Assembly: GCA_002840365.1 (NCBI GenBank)
Contig: PHAO01000001.1
Location: 85,101 to 149,100 of the forward strand
Reading direction: 5' to 3'
DNA length: 64,000 nt
DNA from: Candidatus Dojkabacteria bacterium HGW-Dojkabacteria-1
GTDB taxonomy: Bacteria > Patescibacteriota > Dojkabacteria > SC72
Numbering within the stretch: the first letter of the stretch is position 1; every line of letters begins with the position of its first letter. Below are positions 2,497-46,138 of the stretch, piece after piece. The position numbers and the translations under genes were made by a program. The notes under the pieces were generated by a model. That model had not been told where the DNA came from. It was given only the letters and a program-made list of their open reading frames with translations, and did no database searches.

Positions 2497-4791
2497 ATGT
2501 TGACTAATAATTCTAAGACTAATGTTACTTCCAGTGGCATGGACCTTTCTTTTTTTCAAAGACAGTTCTTTTACATTTTACTATTCTTTCTTCCTTGGTT
2601 TGTTCTACCTTTGCCTTGGGATCCTACTGAAAGTATTCGAGTAACATTCTTTCTTATAATTTCAGCAATTGTAATTCTTCTTGAGGTTGTTAAATGGATT
2701 TGGGATGGCAAGATTGCTATTTATAAATCCGTATTAGATAAAGCTTTTCTCCTTTTATTCCTATCTTTTATAATTTCTACAATATTTGCCATTGATAGAT
2801 GGGGTGCTGTATGGGGTTTTGATGGAAGACTTGGTATGGGTATTATTTCAATGTCAGTATTCCTAACCTTTATTTTCCTCTCAAGGAGTTTTTTAAATGG
2901 TAAGAAATATATTGTTAAATCCGTTGAGATACTGATGTTTGGTCTTTCAATCCTTATTATTCTCAGCCTAATATCTTTCTTTAAAGTAAATATCTTTGGT
3001 TGGATTCCAATATTTAAAAACTTTTTTGTAGTAGGTTTACCATTAACCTTCTATTCTAAAGAATTAGTCCTTATTGCCTCTGGGTTAATACTGTTATCTG
3101 TATATTTAGTAATAAACTATCTTAGAGAAAAGAAATACCAAAAAGTTCTTTTACCTTTTCTTGCTATGGTAGGTGGTTTCTTAACAATACCGATGTTCTC
3201 AATTAATCAGGGAATTGCACTTCCAATTTTAATCTTTGTAGCTCTTGCATTTACTGCACTGCTTCTCTTTATGAAATTAGAAAAGAGCTTAAGATTCTTA
3301 CCTGCATTGATAGGAATTCTAGCGATTCTTTCTACAGTCTTTGCAATAGGGTTGCAGTATGATTCCTTTAAAGACTCTTTGTTAGGAAAATCTTTTGAGG
3401 CTGTAACTCCAATACAATTAGCTTCTGATATCTCATGGTCAGTATCTAGTAGAGTAATTGTTGAAGATTTTTTTAGAGGATTAGTTGGTTTTGGAAATGA
3501 ATCTTTCCCAATTGCATATAGCTTGTTTAAACCTGCAGCACAATCAACACTCTCTCTCTCAAATGTCAGCTTTATTACTTCTTCAAGTGAAATATTTACA
3601 ACACTTGCAACAAGAGGAATCATAGGTGTTGCAATATGGATTCTATTAGGTGTTGTATTGATAAAGACATTAATAAGTGATTTAACTACCCAAAATAGTG
3701 AAGACTCGTTAGTACTATCTATTTTGCAAATCTCTACATTAGTTCTGTATCTCGGTTCCTTCTTCGTATCATACTCATTCCTTTTGTATTTTGTCTTTGG
3801 AATCTTTGCACTTCTCTCTTTGATGAATAGGAACATCCAAAGTAAAAATGAGGAACAGTTTTTACTAAAATTCTGGGCTGTTAATGTAGGTGGAGTATCA
3901 CAAAATATCGCAAAAACAATAAATAGTGTTAATTGGTTCTTAACTTCATTGATAATAGTATTGGTATTTGCTGGATTACTCGGACTCGGTTCAAAATTTG
4001 TATCTTTGATGTATGTTGCAAGAGCAGAAGCATTTGCAGCTGAAGAAACAAAGAAGTACACAAGTGAAGAGGAAATCACACTTGAAGTAAGAGAAGAATT
4101 TTTTAACAACCTAATATCTTACTACTTTAGAGCTCTTAAATATGATAATTCAAATCCTGTCGCAAACAGAAAAGCAAGTACAACAGCCATAGAAATTATG
4201 AATGTATTAAGTGAAATCTATCAGAAATCATCTGAAGAAGAAAAGAGTTCAATTCTTTCAGAGATTTCAAGTTGGAAAAATACAGCAATTGATTTATCTA
4301 GAGAGGCGATTACAACTTCTCCTTACAACTATTCAAACTGGTATGTTAGATCAAGTGTATATATAGGTTTCCTTTCGATAGGGCTTTCTGATTATAGCGA
4401 AGATGCACTCTTTGCTCTTCAAAGATGTGTAAATCTTAATCCTTTAGATTTTGAATCGTACTATCGTGCTGGGCAGATTTACATGATTAAAGAAGACTAT
4501 GAGAAAGCACTTGCAGCATTTGATGGTGGTCTTAGAATAAATGGCCAGCATGTACCATCTCTCGTTCTCTCTGCAAGAATACTAAGCGAGAATGGTGATG
4601 TAAAAACAGCAGTCGGTTATCTTGAAGCCGCGAAGAGAATAATGGAAGTAAACAAGCTTCAAACTGATCCTATGTATGAAAGTATAGTAGAAGCCTTAAA
4701 AGAATTTAATGCAAATTCTAATCAAGGTAGCGAAACTTTGAAAGAAATAGGGGAGGATGATTTAACCGAGGATCTCACACCAAGAGATTAA
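2497..4791 (+). CDS. Polytopic membrane protein (Wzy/O-antigen-ligase-like N-terminal part) with C-terminal TPR repeats
   Basis: More than 10 predicted TM helices in the first ~480 aa. The C-terminal ~250 aa have TPR-like periodicity (…YYRAGQIYMIKEDYEKALAAFDGGL…). No enzymatic motif was identified with certainty. Confidence 0.35.
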   Translation: MLTNNSKTNVTSSGMDLSFFQRQFFYILLFFLPWFVLPLPWDPTESIRVTFFLIISAIVILLEVVKWIWDGKIAIYKSVLDKAFLLLFLSFIISTIFAIDRWGAVWGFDGRLGMGIISMSVFLTFIFLSRSFLNGKKYIVKSVEILMFGLSILIILSLISFFKVNIFGWIPIFKNFFVVGLPLTFYSKELVLIASGLILLSVYLVINYLREKKYQKVLLPFLAMVGGFLTIPMFSINQGIALPILIFVALAFTALLLFMKLEKSLRFLPALIGILAILSTVFAIGLQYDSFKDSLLGKSFEAVTPIQLASDISWSVSSRVIVEDFFRGLVGFGNESFPIAYSLFKPAAQSTLSLSNVSFITSSSEIFTTLATRGIIGVAIWILLGVVLIKTLISDLTTQNSEDSLVLSILQISTLVLYLGSFFVSYSFLLYFVFGIFALLSLMNRNIQSKNEEQFLLKFWAVNVGGVSQNIAKTINSVNWFLTSLIIVLVFAGLLGLGSKFVSLMYVARAEAFAAEETKKYTSEEEITLEVREEFFNNLISYYFRALKYDNSNPVANRKASTTAIEIMNVLSEIYQKSSEEEKSSILSEISSWKNTAIDLSREAITTSPYNYSNWYVRSSVYIGFLSIGLSDYSEDALFALQRCVNLNPLDFESYYRAGQIYMIKEDYEKALAAFDGGLRINGQHVPSLVLSARILSENGDVKTAVGYLEAAKRIMEVNKLQTDPMYESIVEALKEFNANSNQGSETLKEIGEDDLTEDLTPRD

Positions 4792-5282
4792 AAGATTGTT
4801 ATCAAGAAAATCTTCTTAAAAGAGGCTCTATTTATTCTAGTAATTAACTCTTCTTTATCTTGAATCCTTTCTCCTACAAAGGATAGCGTTTCAGAATGGT
4901 TATCATTTAATAGCATACTAGATAAATATCTATCCAAGGAACAATTAGAAATTGGTTCTATTCGAAACTTTGTATCTAATTTTGAGAACCTACTAAACAA
5001 TTCCTCCAATAATAATATGTAAATTGAAAAAAGATTACTCTTCTTTTTTGAGTCGAAGATGCTCTTATATTTTTTTGAAAGATTCCATCCATGAATCCAA
5101 TAAATATCTTTATTAATATCTAAGCAATTCTTATGAATATATCCATTATTACTCAACTTGTTGCAGAGAAGACAAGTAGGTAAAGCTTTGGGAATTTTAG
5201 TTAGGCATTGATTACAAATATCAAACCCAACTCGAGAACATATAATGCATTGTTTAGGAAAAAACAGATCAATCAAATTCAT
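4788..5282 (-). CDS. ComFC-like double zinc-ribbon protein lacking the phosphoribosyltransferase domain
   Basis: N-terminus LFFPKQCIICS…CNQCL…CLLCNK…HKNCL matches the ComFC LLFPPRCxxCG double-CxxC zinc ribbon. The protein ends at 164 aa, without a PRTase fold. Confidence 0.45.
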   Translation of the reverse strand: MNLIDLFFPKQCIICSRVGFDICNQCLTKIPKALPTCLLCNKLSNNGYIHKNCLDINKDIYWIHGWNLSKKYKSIFDSKKKSNLFSIYILLLEELFSRFSKLDTKFRIEPISNCSLDRYLSSMLLNDNHSETLSFVGERIQDKEELITRINRASFKKIFLITIF

Positions 5283-5316
5283 ACTAAAATGTTACCCTAT
5301 CTTTATTAAAAAGATT

Positions 5317-5345
5317 TGATAATTATTCTCTTTTACATTATGATA
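5317..5345 (+). promoter_or_regulatory. Sigma70-like promoter upstream of murJ
   Basis: TTGATA, 17-nt spacer, TATGAT, about 35 nt upstream of the murJ start. Confidence 0.5.
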
Positions 5346-5380
5346 TTATTCGCTAATTAGATATAGTTTGTTATTTTATA

Positions 5381-7153
5381 GTGATAAAGAAAAACAGTGT
5401 CTTTACAGTAATGTTCATCCTCCTTTTGACCAAGATTTTAGGATTTTGGAAATTAAGAATCTTTGCACAATTGTTCGGTGCATCGCATGAGCTCGATATA
5501 TTTTGGGCCGCATTTACAATCCCCGACATTATCTTCATGGTACTTGTTGCTGGATCAATTAATGCTGCAATAATTCCAATACTTTCAGATGTTCTCTATG
5601 ACAAAGGGAAGGAAAGCTTTAATAAGCTCTTTCAACAGTTAACAGTCATATTCTTTGGTCTGTCATTCTTTGTACTGTTAACAGTACTACTTTTTGCACC
5701 ACAGATTACTACTTGGATAGTATCAAATGAGTATGCACAAAGTCTCTTTAATATGTCTTACAGAATATCGACAGATGATTATGACCTCTTTATCAAACTC
5801 TTCAGAATTGGCTTACTCTCTCCTCTCTTTCTTAGTGTTAGTGGATTTGTCACAGCATATTTACAGGTAAGAAAGCAGTTCTTTGTAACTTCTCTAGCAC
5901 CTCTTTTCTACAATGTATCAATGGTTATTGGTACATATTTATTAGTAAATTACACATCATGGGGAGTAGAGGGTATTGCTATCTCTGCAGTTATTGGTTC
6001 AGTTATTCACTTAATAGTTCAATTACCATTACTTCTTAAATACTACAAAGAAGATAATTCTAAAGTTATCGATCTCAAGGGTATATTCAAAGAACCAAAT
6101 GTCCTTAGAGCATTTAAACTTGCATTACCAAGAATGTTAGGAGTCTTAGGGGAGCAATTCAATACTATTGTAAACACCTTTATCAGTTTTACTCTTGCTG
6201 CGGGTACACTTAGTGCATATAGATTTGCATACAGTCTTCATCTCTTTCCAATCAACATTATCGGTAGTGCTGTTGCCCAAGTTGCATTACCAGACTTAGC
6301 CAAATACTGCTGTAAAAACGAAGATGACAATTTTAAAAAGGTATTTAACGATTCAATACAGCTTTCGCTGTATTTAGTTTTTCCAATAGTGGCAATCATG
6401 TTCGTACTTAGACTCCCCATCGTTCGTTTGATTTACGGTACAGGTGCTTTTGACTGGAATGATACCATCATTACGGCATGGACATTAGCATTACTTTCAA
6501 TATCAGTAATAGGGCAAACGGTAGTACAAATTATCCTTAGAGCCTTCTATGCTCTTAAAGATACATGGATGCCTTTAATTGCAATTACAGTAGGAATTGT
6601 AATAAATCTTTTTGGAGCATATCTTTTTACCAACTTCTTTAGTCATTACTACGACTGGAGACCAATATTAGAACAAGTTTGGATTCAGGTAGCCCAAGCA
6701 AATGGTGATGGGGTTGTATCTGTACTTAAATCATTCTTAGGGGACCTTCTTAAATGGATGACAACAAGAGGAGACTCTAGACTCGCAGTAGGTGGTCTAG
6801 CATTAAGTCTAAGTCTCTCTTACCTGGTACAGATGGTTTTAGCATCTCTTCTACTTAATAGAAAGAAAAAAGTAATATCATGGAATGAAACTTTGTATCC
6901 TACTCTTCTTAAAATTCTTAATACCCTAGTTATGATGCTTGGAATGTATTTTGTGTTTAGACTGTTTGATTTCCAACTTGATACTAGTAGAACTGTATAT
7001 GTAATTGTATTGACTGTCCTAACTGCCGCATATGGAGGTATTTCATACCTAGTAGGATCAAAAATCTTTTCTCCAGAAGAATTTGTAAAGGTCGAGAATA
7101 TGCTTAGAAATTTTACGAAAAGATTTACCAATGGTAATAACTTAAATCCATAA
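5381..7153 (+). CDS. murJ: Lipid II flippase MurJ/MviN
   Basis: N-terminal LTKILGFWKLRIFAQLFGAS…DIFWAAFTIPD motif region characteristic of MurJ; about 14 TM helices; 590 aa. Confidence 0.8.
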   Translation: MIKKNSVFTVMFILLLTKILGFWKLRIFAQLFGASHELDIFWAAFTIPDIIFMVLVAGSINAAIIPILSDVLYDKGKESFNKLFQQLTVIFFGLSFFVLLTVLLFAPQITTWIVSNEYAQSLFNMSYRISTDDYDLFIKLFRIGLLSPLFLSVSGFVTAYLQVRKQFFVTSLAPLFYNVSMVIGTYLLVNYTSWGVEGIAISAVIGSVIHLIVQLPLLLKYYKEDNSKVIDLKGIFKEPNVLRAFKLALPRMLGVLGEQFNTIVNTFISFTLAAGTLSAYRFAYSLHLFPINIIGSAVAQVALPDLAKYCCKNEDDNFKKVFNDSIQLSLYLVFPIVAIMFVLRLPIVRLIYGTGAFDWNDTIITAWTLALLSISVIGQTVVQIILRAFYALKDTWMPLIAITVGIVINLFGAYLFTNFFSHYYDWRPILEQVWIQVAQANGDGVVSVLKSFLGDLLKWMTTRGDSRLAVGGLALSLSLSYLVQMVLASLLLNRKKKVISWNETLYPTLLKILNTLVMMLGMYFVFRLFDFQLDTSRTVYVIVLTVLTAAYGGISYLVGSKIFSPEEFVKVENMLRNFTKRFTNGNNLNP

Positions 7154-7156
7154 AAG

Positions 7157-7759
7157 GTGAAAAAATTTCTTAAAATATCAATTTCAATACTCCTCTTTTT
7201 TGTACTTTTAACAGGGCTTGTATCCTTTCTTTTAATTCATAATTACAATACTTGGGAAAAAAGATTTGAGAGAAATATCTATGAAAACAATCTTGCCATC
7301 CTCCCATATGAATCTGATGGTTCTGTTGAAATGAAAATTGCGAAGTTCACCCTATCTAATGAAAATACTGAAAGTTTAATACTTTCTCCATATGAACTCT
7401 CAAATCTAATACTCCTTACTTCAAAAGGATATTTAGACAAAGAGATTACTGTAAGAAGGGTATATATTGAACCTGGGAATTTTAGATGGAATATATATAT
7501 GGAATTTGTTTACAAGAGATACTCTGTATGGTTTTCGGTGGATATAAACAAGGATGATATGCAAACAGTACAGCTTTACATTACCGATATTAAATTAGGA
7601 AATTACTCACTAGGAAGATATTTTGATTTGGTGTATCAAATTAATACAGGTATAGCTAACTCAATACTAACAGTAAATGAAAATGGATTCTCAGGAAGAT
7701 ATCTTGAAAATATTGAATTAATGGAAGACAAGATTGTTGTAAAAGGTTCTAGATATTGA
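7157..7759 (+). CDS. Hypothetical membrane-anchored protein
   Basis: Single N-terminal TM; no recognisable domain; 4 nt downstream of murJ. Confidence 0.4.
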   Translation: MKKFLKISISILLFFVLLTGLVSFLLIHNYNTWEKRFERNIYENNLAILPYESDGSVEMKIAKFTLSNENTESLILSPYELSNLILLTSKGYLDKEITVRRVYIEPGNFRWNIYMEFVYKRYSVWFSVDINKDDMQTVQLYITDIKLGNYSLGRYFDLVYQINTGIANSILTVNENGFSGRYLENIELMEDKIVVKGSRY

Positions 7760-7784
7760 CAATCTTTTACTCTATCTTTAAAAT
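7756..7784 (+). promoter_or_regulatory. Sigma70-like promoter of groES-groEL
   Basis: TTGACA, 17-nt spacer, TAAAAT, placed immediately upstream of the CIRCE element. Confidence 0.55.
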
Positions 7785-7786
7785 CA

Positions 7787-7813
7787 TTAGCAGTCGCTTT
7801 TAATATTTGCTAA
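7787..7813 (+). promoter_or_regulatory. CIRCE (HrcA operator) inverted repeat
   Basis: TTAGCAGTC-N9-ATTTGCTAA compared with consensus TTAGCACTC-N9-GAGTGCTAA. It sits between the promoter and groES. Confidence 0.75.
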
Positions 7814-7835
7814 ATAATTTGTTAGATATATTAAT

Positions 7836-8138
7836 ATGTCTAGTGAGATAAAAATTGTTCCATTAGGTAATAGAGTTGTTGTAAAGCCTCAGGATGTACA
7901 AGAAAAAACTCCTGGAGGTCTTGTAATTCCACCAAGTGCTAATGATGAAAAAAGACCTGCATTTGGTAAGGTTGTTAAGTTAGGAACTGGTAAAGATAAA
8001 GAAGGAAAAGCATTGAAATTTGACGTCAAAGTTGGTGATTTAGTGTATTTTAAAAAATATTCTCCAGAAGAAATAGAAGTTGAGAATCAAGAATATTACA
8101 TTCTTGATGCAGAGGATATTCTCGCTATCGTTAAATAG
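7836..8138 (+). CDS. groES: Co-chaperonin GroES
   Basis: 100 aa; IVPLGNRVVVKP…KTPGGLVIP mobile-loop pattern; directly upstream of groEL. Confidence 0.95.
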   Translation: MSSEIKIVPLGNRVVVKPQDVQEKTPGGLVIPPSANDEKRPAFGKVVKLGTGKDKEGKALKFDVKVGDLVYFKKYSPEEIEVENQEYYILDAEDILAIVK

Positions 8139-8148
8139 ACTAGTTTAA

Positions 8149-9786
<1,638 letters not shown>

Positions 9787-9804
9787 TCATTCAGTTAGTA
9801 AATG

Positions 9805-9833
9805 AACCCCGGTTTAGTCCGGGGTTTTTCTTT
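9805..9833 (+). terminator. Rho-independent terminator after groEL
   Basis: AACCCCGG-tttagt-CCGGGGTT hairpin followed by TTTTTCTTT. Confidence 0.8.
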
Positions 9834-10467
9834 ATAATTTGATTACATCTACGACTTTTCCTGCAGCAAAGAAATTATCTTCTTCGTGCAAAATAATTGG
9901 TAAATATTCATCCGTAGATTCTGAGATTAAAGCCGCCTGAGAGGAGTCTTCTAATAAAGTGAATTTTTTGATGTTGGCAAAATCTTCTATTACTGAAAGA
10001 ACATAATCGCCATTCTGTACATCTTTATCTCTTGGGTCGATGACGACTAGGTCGCCGTCTTCAATGTTTCTATTGTTTGCTCCAACTTTCGCCATATTCA
10101 TAGAATTTCCAGTTGCTTTTACAAGATACAATCCTTCAATATTCATCTTAGGTAAGAAGTTTCTAGAAATTTTTATATACCCTTGAATCTTATCTTCTGC
10201 GAAGATGGATGCAGGTCCACAGGTAGCTAATCCATAGTAGGGAAGTGTTGCAAAGTGAATGTTTTCTGTGCTTTTTTTGTTAAGAATAAGATTGTCATTT
10301 TGTATTATCACAAGGTTGTTATCAAGAAGCTTATTTATGTGGTGTTTTACTGTCTGTGGGTACCTTTCTCCTATGCGTCTTCCAATCTCCCTGTAGCGAA
10401 GGGGTACTGATCCCTGATCCTTAAGGAGGTTTATTATTTTCTTTTGAATTGGATGGAATTGGGTCAT
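9832..10467 (-). CDS. lexA: LexA-type repressor (HTH plus S24 peptidase)
   Basis: N-terminal winged-helix region. C-terminal S24 segment …VKATGNSMNMAKV…IEDGDLVVIDP… carries the Ser of the Ser/Lys dyad in GNSM. 211 aa. Confidence 0.85.
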   Translation of the reverse strand: MTQFHPIQKKIINLLKDQGSVPLRYREIGRRIGERYPQTVKHHINKLLDNNLVIIQNDNLILNKKSTENIHFATLPYYGLATCGPASIFAEDKIQGYIKISRNFLPKMNIEGLYLVKATGNSMNMAKVGANNRNIEDGDLVVIDPRDKDVQNGDYVLSVIEDFANIKKFTLLEDSSQAALISESTDEYLPIILHEEDNFFAAGKVVDVIKL

Positions 10468-10541
10468 TTTTATTTAAAGGTATTATACCAGCCACTTACT
10501 AAGCGTGCAAGTAGTAGCAGGTGTTGAAGTTGTATAAATCG

Positions 10542-10570
10542 TTGACAACCGTCTTTAAATCAATTAGAAT
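10542..10570 (+). promoter_or_regulatory. Near-consensus sigma70 promoter in the lexA divergent intergenic region
   Basis: TTGACA, 17-nt spacer, TAGAAT, located 35 nt upstream of a small unannotated ORF. Confidence 0.6.
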
Positions 10571-10605
10571 GTATTTATCAATATTTAATTTGAGTTTTTA
10601 GTTAG

Positions 10606-10749
10606 ATGGCAAAAAAAGTAACGAGTAAAAGAGTTGCAAAGATATCATCAAAAATACTTAGAGATGGTAGAACTTCTAAAAAAAGTAAAGCCGCAGCCGG
10701 TTCAGCTCTTAGTCAAAGAGAAAAAACTAGATCAAGAAAAAGGAAATAA
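10606..10749 (+). CDS. Unannotated small (47 aa) highly basic protein
   Basis: ATG…TAA frame read by hand: MAKKVTSKRVAKISSKILRDGRTSKKSKAAAGSALSQREKTRSRKRK. About 40% Lys/Arg. Preceded by a consensus promoter. Below the 60-aa cutoff of the supplied ORF track. Confidence 0.45.
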   Translation: MAKKVTSKRVAKISSKILRDGRTSKKSKAAAGSALSQREKTRSRKRK

Positions 10750-10773
10750 CTTAATTTAAAAGCTTTTAATATT

Positions 10774-11082
10774 ATGAGTATCCAGATAGGAAATTATAGG
10801 TTCGAAGGACCATATTTACAAATCAGTAATTTAGAAGGTAAATCAGGTGTTTATGTTATATTGACAGGAATTGCAGACAAGAGATATCGAGTCATAGATA
10901 TTGGAGAATCTGCAGATATTTGGACCAGGATTACATGCCATGACAGAAAAAGCTGCTGGGAAAGGAATGTTTTTCCAGGTAGTTTTATTACATTTGCTGT
11001 TTTATATTGCAATGAAAATGATAGGGTTCAAATTGAAAAAGCGCTCAGAAATGCATATGAACCTACTTGTGGAGAAATTTAG
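10774..11082 (+). CDS. Small protein with a degenerate GIY-YIG-like fold
   Basis: KSGVYVILTG…KRYRVIDIGES…WTRITCH… resembles the GIY…YIG…R…H spacing of GIY-YIG nucleases. The second motif is degenerate (IDIG instead of YIG). Confidence 0.3.
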   Translation: MSIQIGNYRFEGPYLQISNLEGKSGVYVILTGIADKRYRVIDIGESADIWTRITCHDRKSCWERNVFPGSFITFAVLYCNENDRVQIEKALRNAYEPTCGEI

Positions 11083-11092
11083 GAATTTGTAT

Positions 11093-11554
11093 TTAGATTG
11101 TTGAAACAATTTTAACCCAATTCTCCTTTAGCCATTTCTTAGAATCTTTGTATACGGGTAGTAGTTCTCTTTTCTCAAACTCTTTCTTTATGACATTACC
11201 TCTATGAGGATGTTTGTATATTTTATCAAGTGGAGAGTTAAAACCATGTGTATAGTGGCAGAGCTCATGAACAATTGTAGATTTTATAACATATTCGGGA
11301 ATAAAATCCTGTGAGAAATACTTTGTTAAAGTTATCAATGAAACAGTGTAATCTTCTAATTCCTGTTTCTGTATCTCCAACCTCTTTAGGTATCTGTTAA
11401 ATGTTCTTTCATCCTTTATCATCTTTATACTCCCTAACTGTCTCTTAGAGTATTTACCGTATTTAATAGCTACTATGTTAAGTCTAGGTACATCGCAAAA
11501 GTAATTTTCCCAAATGTCGTATAGTAAATTTTCTAAATATTTGTTGTCTCTCAT
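11093..11554 (-). CDS. SprT-like / DUF45 zinc metalloprotease
   Basis: …STIVHELCHYTHGFNS…HPHRGNVIKKEF matches the SprT signature HELxH…HG..(W/F)K. Confidence 0.55.
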   Translation of the reverse strand: MRDNKYLENLLYDIWENYFCDVPRLNIVAIKYGKYSKRQLGSIKMIKDERTFNRYLKRLEIQKQELEDYTVSLITLTKYFSQDFIPEYVIKSTIVHELCHYTHGFNSPLDKIYKHPHRGNVIKKEFEKRELLPVYKDSKKWLKENWVKIVSTI

Positions 11555-11570
11555 GTTATTATATTCCTAG

Positions 11571-13379
11571 ATGAAATCCATTATACAAGAAAAGATAAAA
11601 ACACTCTGGCATGTTGTAATATTTTTCTATGGAAGATACACAAAAGAGGTAGTATTAAGAGATTTGATTTTTGTTGGTGTAATTGTTGCAGAAATGATAG
11701 GAATTACAATCGCTGGTAAATTCTTAGATGCAACACTAGAAGTAATAAGGGCTTCTACAGGAGAATTTGATATTCAAGAGTATCTAGCAACAGACTCTTT
11801 CTACTTCCTTGCTATATCACTTTTACTTCTAATTGTTGTCATAGTAGGGAGAAATATTAGAGCTAATATTGCAGCCAATGTTGCTGACAAGGTTTGGAAA
11901 GATACGAGTCTTGAGGTTATGGGTAAGATTTCAAATACGAACTTACAAGATGTAGAGAAACCTAAGTTACAAAATCTAATAGACTTTATTCCTAACTACT
12001 CAATTACCAATATGCTTCTTTCATATGAGGCATTTTCTGCAATTGTATATCAAGTAGCAAGAGGAACTACCGCCTTTATTATCCTTTCTTCCCACTTAGG
12101 TTGGACCTCATTAATATTAATTCTCTTTGTTCTACCAGAGGTATTAATGTCTCATTTTAATAGGAAGAGAATACAGCTTTACGATGATAATCAAATGAGT
12201 AGATTGAAATTAACAAGCTATATCTATTTCACATTAGGAATGGATATTAGAAACTTCATGGAACTTAGAGTTGATAACACATATGATTTCCTTAAGAAAA
12301 GGTATCAAAAGGAAAGAGAGGAATATCTTGGAGGTCTTTTTGAAAGAAGAAAACACTTCACTATCGATAATACTTTCGGTTCTGTTTCAGGCCAGCTTTT
12401 TAAATATGTCTATGTAATATATTTAGTTGCTCATGTAATAATAAACAAGATAACCATTGGTACATTTAGTGCTCTTTTTAACTATGTTGAAGTAGTATAT
12501 TCAAGTGCACTTACAGCGCTTAACACATTTTCACTGCTTGATACTCATTTAGCATATGCATCTAAGTATTTTGAGTTTGTACATTACCAAGGTTTTGGAG
12601 ATGAAAAACAGGGTTTCGCAAAGTTAGGCAAAAAGGTACCTTCTTTAGCATTTAATAATTTAGATTTTGCATATCCTGATCAACCAGAAAGAAAAGTATT
12701 GGAGAATATTAATTTAGTTATTAAACCAGGTGAAAAGGTAGCATTCTTTGGAGGAGATGGTTCAGGAAAAAGTAGTTTGATAAAGATATTAACAGGGTTG
12801 TATGAAGTAACATCAGGAGACTATCAAATAGGAGAGTATTCAATTAGGGAATTAGCAAGAGGAGAGTTAAAGAGAAAAATGTCTGTTACTTTCCAAAACT
12901 ATGTTAACTACAACTTCAGTATTAGGGAAAATATAACTCTAACAAGTGAGAAGAAAAATATTGATATGGACCTATACAAGAAAGTAATCAAAATATGTGA
13001 GATTGATAGATTCATGAAGAAAGAGAATATTACAGACAAGCTAATACTTGGAAAATATCTAGACGGCAAAGAACTCTCTCCTGGATATTGGCAAAGATTA
13101 GCAATTGCAAGAATGCTTTACAGAAATAGGGACATATTTATAATGGATGAACCTTTCGCTTTTATAGATGCACCTTCTAGAGACTTTATCTTAAGAAATA
13201 TAATTGATTTTGTTGGGCCAAAAAGAACTTTAATACTCATAACAAGGGATACTGATATGCTAGATGAATTTGACAGAATATACATGTTTGATGATGGACA
13301 TATTGTAGAAGCAGGTAATTGGAGAGAGTTGATAAAGAGGAAGGGTAAGTTTTACAAAGAGGTAAAATTTAATCAGTAG
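11571..13379 (+). CDS. Fused ABC exporter (TM domain plus ATPase) with divergent signature and H-loop
   Basis: Six-TM N-terminal half. Walker A GGDGSGKSS and Walker B IFIMDEP are present. The ABC signature is LSPGYWQ instead of LSGGQ. An H-loop-like segment reads ILITRDT, with no histidine. Confidence 0.75.
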   Translation: MKSIIQEKIKTLWHVVIFFYGRYTKEVVLRDLIFVGVIVAEMIGITIAGKFLDATLEVIRASTGEFDIQEYLATDSFYFLAISLLLLIVVIVGRNIRANIAANVADKVWKDTSLEVMGKISNTNLQDVEKPKLQNLIDFIPNYSITNMLLSYEAFSAIVYQVARGTTAFIILSSHLGWTSLILILFVLPEVLMSHFNRKRIQLYDDNQMSRLKLTSYIYFTLGMDIRNFMELRVDNTYDFLKKRYQKEREEYLGGLFERRKHFTIDNTFGSVSGQLFKYVYVIYLVAHVIINKITIGTFSALFNYVEVVYSSALTALNTFSLLDTHLAYASKYFEFVHYQGFGDEKQGFAKLGKKVPSLAFNNLDFAYPDQPERKVLENINLVIKPGEKVAFFGGDGSGKSSLIKILTGLYEVTSGDYQIGEYSIRELARGELKRKMSVTFQNYVNYNFSIRENITLTSEKKNIDMDLYKKVIKICEIDRFMKKENITDKLILGKYLDGKELSPGYWQRLAIARMLYRNRDIFIMDEPFAFIDAPSRDFILRNIIDFVGPKRTLILITRDTDMLDEFDRIYMFDDGHIVEAGNWRELIKRKGKFYKEVKFNQ

Positions 13380-44218: not shown

Positions 44219-45775
44219 ATGACAAAAAAGATTGTAAACCAAAATACAAATGTAGGTAGAGTTCCAATTGTTACAATATTGGGTCATGTTGATCATGGAA
44301 AAACAACAATATTAGACTTTATTCGAAAGAGTAATGTACAAAGCTGTGAGGCAGGTGGTATCACTCAAAAAATTTCTGTTTTTACAATATCTTTAAGTAG
44401 TGATGAAACAAAGAAACTTACCTTTATTGATACTCCTGGTCATGAAGCTTTTGATTTAATGAGACTTCGAGGGGGAAGTATTGCTGATATAGTTATCTTA
44501 GTTGTTGCAGGAAATGATGGAGTAAAGCCACAAACTATTGAATCTATAGAGATAATTAAGAACTCAACTGCTAAACCTATTGTTGCTATCAACAAAACAG
44601 ATTTACCTGATGTAGATCTTGCAAAGATAAAAAGAGATTTAGTTAACAATGGTCTTCTTATTGAAGGTATGGGTGGAAATATTCCCGTAATCGAAGTCTC
44701 AGGTAAAACAGGAAAAGGTATACCTGAGCTTTTAGATATGATTTCTTTGGTTGTAGATGTAGAAGGGCTACAAGATAGAGGAGATTTACCAAAAGGAATT
44801 GCTGCTAAAGCCTTCGTTTTGGAATCAATAAAGGATAAATCAAGGGGAAATGTCTCTACATTAGTACTTACCTCTGGTGATTTATGTAAAGGTTCATGGC
44901 TTGGGTTTAAAACAGATGGAAAAGTAAGAATAGAAAAGGTTAAGGGAATAATCTCAGAAGAAGGAGAGAATGTATGTGACCTTTTCTGTGGTTGTGGTGG
45001 AAGGGTTATTGGTGTTTCTGAATTAATTCCAATAGGTAGTGAAGTATATATTTTAGAGAAGAGTGATGAAAAATTACTTTCTTCAATGTTTAAAGAAGAA
45101 ATTTCTGAGCAAGATACATCTCTTGCCGAGGATGACTTCTTTAGTGATCTATTTACTGAAGAGAAGAAAGATGGTGGAAAACATCTTAATGTAATACTTA
45201 AGAGTTCATCTAAGGGATCCTTAGAAGCTATAGAGAAATCACTCTCCAAATTAGTAAGAGAAGAGTATACTGTGAAGATAATTTCTTCGGGTGTAGGTGA
45301 TATCTCTTTGCAAGATGTGGAGATGGCTAAACTCTCTAAAGCTATACTTTTAGGTTTCGAGGTAGGTGTAGAGAGAGGAGTTGATGATATTGCAAGAAAG
45401 AATGGAGTATTAGTACGTAATTATTCAATTATTTACAAACTAATTGAAGAGGTAGATGAAGCATTGGATATGATTTCATCTCCTGATCAAGCTGAAGAAG
45501 AGATAGGGAATGCTTCGGTAAGAATGATAATTACACTAACAGATGGTTCTAAAGTATTAGGTTCTAGAGTAAAGGATGGAATTTTAAAGAGAGATTGTAA
45601 GTGTTACATTGTTAGAAATGATGAAATACTTGGTGAAAGTAGGATAAAATCCCTTAGAAAGAACAAAAACATTGTGTCCGAGGTAAAGCAGGGAGAAGAG
45701 TGTGGAGTGATGCTCAGTTCAGAAGTAGAAGTCACAGAAGGGGATGAATTGTATTGTTACAAGATTATTCGATAG
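44219..45775 (+). CDS. infB: Translation initiation factor IF-2, short form
   Basis: G-domain VTILGHVDHGKTTILD…DTPGHEAF… begins near the N-terminus; 518 aa. Confidence 0.92.
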   Translation: MTKKIVNQNTNVGRVPIVTILGHVDHGKTTILDFIRKSNVQSCEAGGITQKISVFTISLSSDETKKLTFIDTPGHEAFDLMRLRGGSIADIVILVVAGNDGVKPQTIESIEIIKNSTAKPIVAINKTDLPDVDLAKIKRDLVNNGLLIEGMGGNIPVIEVSGKTGKGIPELLDMISLVVDVEGLQDRGDLPKGIAAKAFVLESIKDKSRGNVSTLVLTSGDLCKGSWLGFKTDGKVRIEKVKGIISEEGENVCDLFCGCGGRVIGVSELIPIGSEVYILEKSDEKLLSSMFKEEISEQDTSLAEDDFFSDLFTEEKKDGGKHLNVILKSSSKGSLEAIEKSLSKLVREEYTVKIISSGVGDISLQDVEMAKLSKAILLGFEVGVERGVDDIARKNGVLVRNYSIIYKLIEEVDEALDMISSPDQAEEEIGNASVRMIITLTDGSKVLGSRVKDGILKRDCKCYIVRNDEILGESRIKSLRKNKNIVSEVKQGEECGVMLSSEVEVTEGDELYCYKIIR

Positions 45776-45783
45776 TCAAAAGT

Positions 45784-45812
45784 TTGACAATTAGCCTATA
45801 AGGATATAGAAT
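45784..45812 (+). promoter_or_regulatory. Consensus sigma70 promoter of rpsO
   Basis: TTGACA, 17-nt spacer, TAGAAT. Confidence 0.6.
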
Positions 45813-45874: not shown

Positions 45875-46138
45875 ATGTCACTAAATAAAGAAGAAAAACA
45901 GAATATAATGAAGGAATTTGCCCTCCACGAGGGTGACACAGGTTCTCCTGAAGTTCAGGTTGCAATACTAACAGAAGAAATTTCTAGATTAAGTGAACAC
46001 TTAAAGGATCATAGAAAAGATAATCACTCCAGAAGAGGATTGCTTCAAAAGGTTGGTAAGCGTAGAAGATTAATTCAATATCTTCAAACTAACGAACCAG
46101 AAAGGTACGAGATATTTTCAAAGAAAATAAAGATTTAA
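45875..46138 (+). CDS. rpsO: 30S ribosomal protein S15
   Basis: …[17 protein letters not shown]…[16 protein letters not shown]…; 87 aa. Confidence 0.95.

Follow-up and report, generated by a model that had tools for sequence, protein, structure and literature searches.

We analysed a 64-kb stretch of DNA (the window; about 33% G+C) from Candidatus Dojkabacteria (candidate division WS6) bacterium HGW-Dojkabacteria-1, in which a gene for a LexA-like repressor of 211 amino acids (aa) lies beside genes for a basic protein of 47 aa, a GIY-YIG protein of 102 aa and an HExxH metalloprotease (zincin) of 153 aa. A previous reading, made from the sequence alone, had taken this group for a compact SOS-type DNA-damage cassette. 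On comparison with related genomes the cassette split into a variable insert and a core zincin gene, and on balance we consider that the region holds two unrelated things, an acquired accessory module consisting of the LexA-like, 47-aa and 102-aa genes (9832–11082) and a lineage-conserved zincin gene (11093–11554). As a wider and clearly more tentative proposal, mobile defence islands may have taken over a branch of the LexA family as a switch that senses damage, in bacteria of the candidate phyla radiation (CPR) and in some other lineages, where it would head restriction-modification (RM), MazF, CBASS-type and Shedu-type operons and would be recurrently paired with a divergent, stand-alone mini-nuclease of the GIY-YIG or HNH type; the window would then hold the minimal form of this arrangement.

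Gene order in the window and in related genomes

All the features described in the sequence-only reading, that is, the LexA-like gene, a promoter and the 47-aa, 102-aa and 153-aa open reading frames (ORFs), were found in place, and the 211-aa, 102-aa and 153-aa proteins are identical to CVU76_00470, CVU76_00475 and CVU76_00480, respectively. All Dojkabacteria loci that were examined have the 153-aa gene between a divergent ABC exporter gene and groEL. Where this gene is most similar to that of the window (89% identity; L006–L008) the gap towards groEL is otherwise empty and the gene ends at the groEL terminator; at this empty site the equivalent terminator hairpin directly abuts the gene, which is there 151 aa long. 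In three other lineages the slot is occupied by a gene for a 180-aa protein with an XRE-type helix-turn-helix (HTH), co-directional with the zincin gene (L001, 6705–7250; L004, 6512–7054; L009, 6512–7054), and no family could be detected for the C-terminal domain of this protein. The trio of LexA-like, 47-aa and 102-aa genes was found, among the loci examined, in the window and in L015 only. Because the contents of the slot vary while the 153-aa gene stays, we regard 9832–11082 (about 1.3 kb) as a variable insert and the zincin gene as the resident. Judging by gene order, the 153-aa gene is a core gene of Dojkabacteria and its adjacency to lexA is incidental. The earlier view of a SprT-like gene as part of the lexA unit thus fails, since the gene keeps its place even where no LexA-like gene is present.

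On its left, the insert is flanked by groES (7836–8138) and groEL (8167–9786), both on the forward strand. Between the groEL stop codon at 9786 and the stop codon of the LexA-like gene at 9832 there is a G+C-rich hairpin followed by a run of T (9804–9827), which is probably a bidirectional terminator shared by the two genes and probably also marks the left border of the insert. Neither att-like sequences nor direct repeats were seen at the insert junctions. On the right, the 153-aa gene (reverse strand) is convergent with the 102-aa gene across a gap of 10 nt and divergent from the ABC exporter gene (11571–13379, forward strand), which is followed by folD.

The LexA-family repressor

The 211-aa protein is encoded on the reverse strand (9832–10467) and combines an N-terminal winged HTH with an S24 autopeptidase domain. 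It was matched by Pfam Peptidase_S24 (PF00717) with E = 8e-14; the match to LexA_DNA_bind (PF01726) stayed below threshold (E = 0.055; 13.7 vs 23.7 bits), and this domain was present in more distant members of the family. The phrog_4 repressor profile also matched the protein (E = 2.5e-16). With the LexA equivalog model TIGR00498 it scored 61 bits, below the cut-off of 111 bits, and for this reason we call it a LexA-family protein and not LexA. In an alignment of 30 homologs, C83, G84, S122 (in the motif GNSM) and K167 (in NIKKF) are invariant, and the autoproteolytic machinery is therefore intact. The predicted self-cleavage site is Cys83–Gly84, with Ser122 as the nucleophile and Lys167 as the base. 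A Cys–Gly site appears plausible, although it is not the canonical Ala–Gly pair of LexA; the same Cys–Gly pair also occurs in UmuD. With its Ser/Lys dyad and Cys–Gly site, the protein bears out the earlier assignment to the S24 proteins of the LexA family.

The nearest relative of the repressor is that of L015 (79% identity), after which the closest ones (55–61% identity) come from Peregrinibacteria and unclassified Patescibacteria; one homolog from Dojkabacteria is just 36% identical. When the window was compared with L015, the ratio of non-synonymous to synonymous substitution rates (dN/dS) came to 0.06, 0.15 and 0.34 for the LexA-like, 47-aa and 102-aa genes, respectively, at dS values between 0.6 and 1.9 across the three genes. 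It is clear that all three are under purifying selection. Taken together with its neighbours in other genomes (below), the LexA-like gene has the appearance of an acquired regulator tied to restriction and defence islands, and not of a proven master regulator of the SOS response.

The 47-aa and 102-aa genes

The 47-aa ORF (10606–10749, forward strand) had been described as an unannotated protein with roughly 40% Lys/Arg. The measured content is 38% (18 of 47 residues), and the gene is missing from the GenBank annotation, as the locus tags CVU76_00470, 00475 and 00480 run consecutively around the ORF. It is a real gene despite this, as L015 carries an ortholog with 83% amino-acid identity, from which it differs by 13 synonymous and 9 non-synonymous changes (the dN/dS of 0.15 given above). 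An ORF of 49 aa at the equivalent position in L001 was considered as a further homolog and rejected, because it is unrelated in sequence.

The protein carries a single copy of a module of about 40 aa, ..ASK(V/I)LRDGRTSK.SK.AAGSALSQ, which is widespread in phages and bacteria. It was matched by phrog_5079, a small phage protein family of unknown function (E = 6e-17; residues 1–42 on profile positions 6–47 of 49), and no Pfam, NCBIfam or PADLOC family covered it, a faint likeness to Con-6 (E = 0.28) being the only one seen. A full HMMER scan yielded 255 representative relatives at E ≤ 1e-3. Many relatives are about 82 aa long and carry two tandem copies of the module (set P0228–P0377; for example P0249 and P0254), and in some the module is fused to an XRE HTH or to an Xre/MbcA/ParS toxin-binding domain. 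In Xre/MbcA/ParS antitoxins the N-terminal position normally holds a DNA-binding HTH; by analogy, the presence of the module in this slot hints at nucleic-acid binding. Searching GenBank phages with tblastn gave no match and neither did a narrow scan of viral sequences; with a broader alignment, 302 relatives were found on IMG/VR viral contigs, where their neighbours are mixed and include Cro/CI-type HTH proteins, antirepressors and ABC-3C modules.

The 102-aa ORF (10774–11082, forward strand) begins 24 nt after the stop codon of the 47-aa gene, and the two genes are therefore probably co-transcribed. It encodes a stand-alone protein with the GIY-YIG fold, a three-stranded sheet with helices, and is a putative mini-nuclease. 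The family was assembled from 7 clusters obtained in a word-based search and about 25 further loci from scans of other collections. When its residues were mapped to the canonical GIY-YIG set by motif, Y27, R52, H56 and E88 proved to be invariant, and the position of the YIG tyrosine is held by an invariant Asp42. The earlier label of a degenerate GIY-YIG protein was correct. Pfam PF01541 did not hit the window protein, and two homologs fell just short of its cut-off of 22.6 bits, with scores of 22.3 and 21.9; a sequence search of the PDB gave no meaningful match. PADLOC gave weak matches to PDC-S14 and UzuA (E between 6e-5 and 4e-3) over 45 residues.

Occurrence of the pair beside restriction and defence genes

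A 102-aa family gene divergent from a LexA-family gene was found in the window, L015, L017–L019 (Peregrinibacteria), L020, L023, L082 (a weak match), L097 (Moraniibacteria) and L114. In L022 a GIY-YIG-like protein of 116 aa occupies the same position; it was recognised by motif alone and matched neither Pfam nor the hidden Markov model of the family. A LexA-like gene accompanied by a nuclease-fold protein, as pointed out in the sequence-only reading, thus recurs in several CPR lineages. In these loci the repressor gene usually stands at the head of an RM operon. An N6 methyltransferase follows it in L016, L017 and L020 (by Pfam) and in L021 (by sequence similarity); in L017 a 73-aa ORF separates the methyltransferase from an HsdS gene, and in L020 there is a similar ORF of 334 aa. 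In L097 the repressor is followed by Dcm, R.HinP1I and Vsr, and in L023 a type III Mod gene with a likely Res gene lies farther downstream, past an ORF on the opposite strand.

The survey of neighbours was extended to LexA-family loci from GTDB genomes (L020–L099). Among the co-directional downstream genes of 55 such loci there were N6_Mtase (6), N6_N4_Mtase (4), C5 methylase (2) and HsdS (2), in total about 14 RM methylase or specificity genes, and also MazF/PemK (5), SMODS (2), patatin, Shedu SduA and others; restriction methyltransferases and these toxin and defence genes prevailed at this position. The divergent upstream neighbours included HNH (5), GIY-YIG (3), Thoeris TIR (3), RecA (4) and DUF6504 (4) proteins. 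As these divergent neighbours are of both kinds, the family appears to mix likely true SOS repressors with regulators of defence islands.

Members of the 102-aa family also occur away from LexA. They lie between HsdS-like and HsdM genes in L014, L103, L106, L108, L110 and the viral contig L118; in other loci they stand beside EcoRII and a zeta toxin, or beside an OLD-TOPRIM ATPase and an MmeI-type enzyme. One member follows an XRE and M78 pair in an element with an integrase and a Prim-Pol gene.

Two side observations were made on these islands. The island of the Peregrinibacteria (L017–L019, about 4300–9000; GIY-YIG, LexA-like, N6 methyltransferase and HsdS genes) is inserted between dnaK and grpE-hrcA, and the window island adjoins groESL, so that both stand beside chaperone operons. 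In L114 (2452–4486) three genes come behind the LexA-like/GIY-YIG pair, namely an 88-aa ORF, a Prok-E2_E gene and a ThiF/E1 and JAB fusion, a module of the ubiquitin-like conjugation type that is linked to phage defence.

Promoters and candidate operators

The near-consensus promoter noted previously, TTGACA-17-TAGAAT, was borne out at 10542–10570 on the forward strand, where it matches the sigma-70 consensus in 11 of 12 positions and serves the 47-aa and 102-aa genes. The whole window has 4 sites with at least 11 of 12 matches (1.38 expected), and the other three are located directly upstream of groES, rpsT and rpsO, which places this promoter among the strongest consensus promoters of the window. 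A putative lexA promoter, TTGCAC-17-TATAAT, was read from the sequence on the reverse strand (10482–10510). The two promoters stand back-to-back, with 31 bp between their −35 hexamers, and both are kept in L015, in which the lexA promoter is TTACAC-17-TATAAT. The architecture of the 47-aa promoter is alike in L015 and L017, and L016 has TTGACA at the same position.

Between the two −35 hexamers lies a candidate operator, GGTGTTGAAGTTGTATAA (10520–10537), with two TGT cores 9 bp apart. The pattern TGT-N6-TGT was found in the same register relative to TTGACA in the window, L015, L016, L017/L020/L021 and L022. These repeats are compatible with a direct-repeat operator, as a weak candidate. A study of LexA in Patescibacteria (Sanchez-Osuna et al. 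2017) is cited by a later paper among the cases of direct-repeat LexA motifs. Inverted repeats were also sought in the intergenic region of the LexA-like and 47-aa genes, and just one A+T-rich pair was found. No convincing operator was seen at the uvrD-like and recF genes of the window, the upstream region of uvrD included; recA and uvrA are not among the genes of the window. An operator common to other damage genes, which the earlier reading would call for, thus found no counterpart in the motif scans of the window.

Upstream of the wider LexA family, the forms GTCAA-N4-GTCAA and GTCAA-N4-TTGAC were enriched (8 and 6 loci, respectively; at most 4 in shuffles). The second form also occurs in a perfect palindrome, GTCAAAAGTTTGAC (45775–45812 of the window), which overlaps the −35 hexamer of the 11/12 promoter just upstream of rpsO (45875–46138); this match is probably a coincidence. 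In addition, the DnaA-box consensus TTATCCACA was strongly enriched in the 170 nt upstream of LexA-family genes from CPR and other metagenome-assembled genomes. It was exact in 9 of 83 loci (shuffle mean 0.2) and present with at most one mismatch in 22 of 83 (shuffle mean 4.3); the corresponding counts in control regions were 0 and 3 of 76. Loci with this box include L027, L028, L029, L033, L040, L075, L080, L081 and L082, and in those that were read it is placed between two divergent TTGAC(A) boxes. It was not found, on reading by eye, in the upstream region of the LexA-like gene of the window itself.

The 153-aa zincin

The motifs HELCH (residues 96–100), HPHRG (115–119) and KKEF (123–126), claimed earlier as a SprT signature, are present in the 153-aa protein, and all of 28 homologs keep H96, E97, H100, H103, H117, G119 and E125. 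In total, 435 homologs were found, all of about 151 aa; those with a named source are almost all from WS6/Dojkabacteria. The UniRef name of the protein is 'SprT-like domain-containing'. Its scores with the Pfam families SprT-like (PF10263; 13.7 vs 25.6 bits) and WLM (PF08325; 17.1 vs 26 bits) are below threshold, as is its match to YgjP, and all three matches are limited to the HExxH helix. An hhalign comparison of the 153-aa family with E. coli SprT (YggI) gave a probability of 3.4% over 9 columns, which cover only HExxH. The protein has an HExxH zincin core with a Spartan-like fold, and the fold match to selecase was slightly ahead of that to Spartan. A sequence search of the PDB, selecase-type proteins included, gave no meaningful match, and Foldseek of the 153-aa model against the PDB gave no significant one. 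The protein has no Cys cluster, zinc ribbon, or zinc-binding or DNA-binding subdomain; after the catalytic helix there is just a loop and two helices. Of the earlier SprT-like identity, the zincin with a Spartan-like fold stands, and family membership does not, as the SprT-like and WLM thresholds are missed and only HExxH aligns to E. coli SprT. We therefore describe the protein as a minimal zincin, for which 'SprT-like' is a fair name at the level of the fold; membership in the family and a role in crosslink repair are not established.

The start codons of the 153-aa and ABC exporter genes are 16 nt apart (11555–11570), and 16–49 nt apart in relatives by called gene coordinates, so the promoters of the two genes must each lie inside the other gene. 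With a gap of 16 nt there is no room for an intergenic operator upstream of the 153-aa gene. As a separate observation, the pairing of the zincin with an XRE protein in other Dojkabacteria is reminiscent of ImmA/ImmR, IrrE/DdrO and CapP/CapH. The neighbouring XRE protein was also considered as a degenerate S24 protein; this was rejected, because hhalign against the LexA family gave a probability of 0.2%.

Discussion

We propose the following course of events for the insert. The repressor would bind in the 31 bp between the two −35 boxes, or overlapping them, and shut off both itself and the divergent operon. RecA filaments on single-stranded DNA (ssDNA), arising from DNA damage or from the processing of foreign DNA, would stimulate self-cleavage at Cys83–Gly84 through the Ser122/Lys167 dyad, and the strong promoter, once freed, would express the 47-aa basic peptide, presumably nucleic-acid-binding, together with a GIY-YIG nuclease. 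Where the element is more complete, the transcript of the repressor gene would run on into an RM operon. As related repressors head such operons, we find the module easiest to understand as a control region belonging to a mobile island for defence or restriction; the copy in the window is without a methyltransferase. What the analysis shows is the gene content, the folds, the catalytic residues, the synteny and the purifying selection; repression, induction by damage, nuclease activity and the substrate of the protease are inferred.

Several results weigh against this. No operator could be established for the repressor by dyads, direct repeats or inverted repeats: a matrix built from the other four TGT-N6-TGT sites ranks the window site 610th in the window, and the GTCAA dyads show no enrichment in it. 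The catalytic activity of the 102-aa protein is uncertain because the second GIY-YIG tyrosine is Asp. On neither side of the window copy is there an integrase, an att repeat or a methyltransferase, and for this reason its mobility is deduced from comparison only. Some LexA-family members adjoin recA or mutagenesis cassettes, and the LexA-like protein, seen here within 64 kb, could be a true SOS regulator if it is the only LexA of the cell. This leads to the original suggestion of a chromosomal SOS cassette, in which the LexA of the host would co-regulate a small basic protein, a repair nuclease and a SprT-type protease for DNA-protein crosslinks. The intact catalytic residues of the repressor agree with it, as do the GIY-YIG fold, known from UvrC and Cho, the UniRef name of the 153-aa protein and the members of the same LexA family that are divergent from recA. 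The suggestion nevertheless seems improbable to us, since the 153-aa gene is kept in place where the LexA-like gene is missing, has only 16 nt of intergenic DNA upstream and encodes a protein which stays under the Pfam thresholds for SprT-like and WLM, shares just 9 aligned residues with E. coli SprT and lacks a zinc ribbon or DNA-binding subdomain, and since no shared operator was found in the window. If the adjacency to lexA were functional after all, the zincin might instead be an anti-repressor protease that cuts the adjacent repressor, as in ImmA/ImmR, IrrE/DdrO and CapP/CapH. The co-directional XRE gene that follows the zincin gene in three other Dojkabacteria lineages would fit such a role, and in the PDB the HTH of the XRE protein is closest in sequence to 7t5u, which we take to be CapH. 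We consider this very unlikely, however: the closest relatives carry the zincin gene without any regulator, M78-type proteases are far less similar to it in fold than selecase and Spartan, the C-terminal domain of the XRE protein is not significantly related to S24, and the repressor of the window, being self-cleaving, would need no protease.

Two further explanations concern the insert itself. It might be the decaying immunity remnant of a prophage or an integrative and conjugative element (ICE), that is, a CI-like repressor and early-region genes with no present function for the cell. The matches to phrog_5079 and phrog_4 point in this direction, and so do the 302 viral-contig relatives of the 47-aa protein, often beside Cro/CI-type HTH or antirepressor genes, the variation of the slot among relatives and the lack of any remaining cargo genes in the window. 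Decay is, however, hard to reconcile with three genes that are intact and subject to purifying selection in two genomes which have diverged this far (dS 0.6–1.9; dN/dS 0.06–0.34), with the conservation of both promoters and with the persistence of the repressor and GIY-YIG pair over phylum-level distances, and we regard this origin as unlikely. There is a reasonable, though lesser, chance that the GIY-YIG mini-protein is a restriction-linked effector resembling PrrC/rlo and the LexA-like protein the controller of a restriction system since lost, which would leave an orphan pair acting in phage defence and not in repair. In at least 5 loci a member of the family is framed by HsdS-like and HsdM genes, and others have EcoRII or MmeI-type genes as neighbours; the LexA-like gene directly precedes methyltransferases of three classes, and the PADLOC matches, to PDC-S14 and UzuA, are to be counted on this side, although they are weak and span 45 residues; at the window locus there is neither a methyltransferase nor a restriction gene. 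We retain the division into an acquired accessory module and a resident zincin gene.

Very little is known of the ways in which ultra-small CPR bacteria detect DNA damage or control their numerous restriction systems. A recurring unit made up of a mini GIY-YIG nuclease and a repressor of the LexA type, often joined to restriction operons, would tie the RecA signal to defence in CPR bacteria; if this is true, the signal is wired directly to immunity and the GIY-YIG protein of about 100 aa is a new damage-induced effector. The locus offers three small, uncharacterised and easily expressed proteins for testing. It also calls for caution: adjacency is a poor basis for assigning an SOS regulon, and the signal of a SprT gene next to lexA vanishes when related genomes are compared. 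In our literature searches we found no description of the LexA-type repressor and GIY-YIG mini-nuclease unit, or of its link to RM operons, in CPR bacteria; the individual parts are of known kinds, and, as far as these searches went, the recurring unit and its restriction link in CPR bacteria are undescribed.

Comparison with known systems

The zincin differs from Spartan, Wss1 and bacterial SprT in having no zinc-binding or ssDNA-binding subdomain and no zinc ribbon, and in its sub-threshold scores. To selecase, projannalysin and proabylysin (the archaeal 'minigluzincins') it has no significant sequence match, and compared with proteins of the selecase type it adds an N-terminal helix and a long C-terminal helix. 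Compared with Cho, the N-terminal GIY-YIG domain of UvrC and the stand-alone GIY-YIG nucleases T4 EndoII and R.Eco29kI, the 102-aa protein is small, at about 100 aa, and is without a UvrB-binding or DNA-binding domain. Its family also differs from them in the invariant Asp at the second Tyr, in missing the Pfam GIY-YIG threshold and in its context, which is that of restriction and defence loci and not of repair genes.

PrrC/rlo are 'restriction-linked' genes within type I restriction loci, and PrrC-type proteins are anticodon nucleases. The likeness lies in a small putative nuclease gene embedded between hsdS-like and hsdM genes; the 102-aa family is made up of GIY-YIG proteins and not of anticodon nucleases. 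Divergent lexA-linked SOS operons are present in B. subtilis (lexA and yneA-yneB-ynzC) and M. tuberculosis (lexA and Rv2719c), and their products are cell-division inhibitors. As in these Gram-positive operons, small genes stand back-to-back with lexA and share a control region, so that one repressor site can control both; here, however, the divergent genes encode a phage-type basic protein and a GIY-YIG mini-nuclease, and they form part of an accessory insert, not of a conserved chromosomal feature. The arrangement also resembles CI/SetR/ImmR, CapH/CapP and BrxR/CapW, in which a damage-sensing repressor heads cargo or defence operons on variable islands, although the repressor in our case is a winged-helix S24 protein of the LexA type, and not an XRE and M78 pair or a WYL protein.

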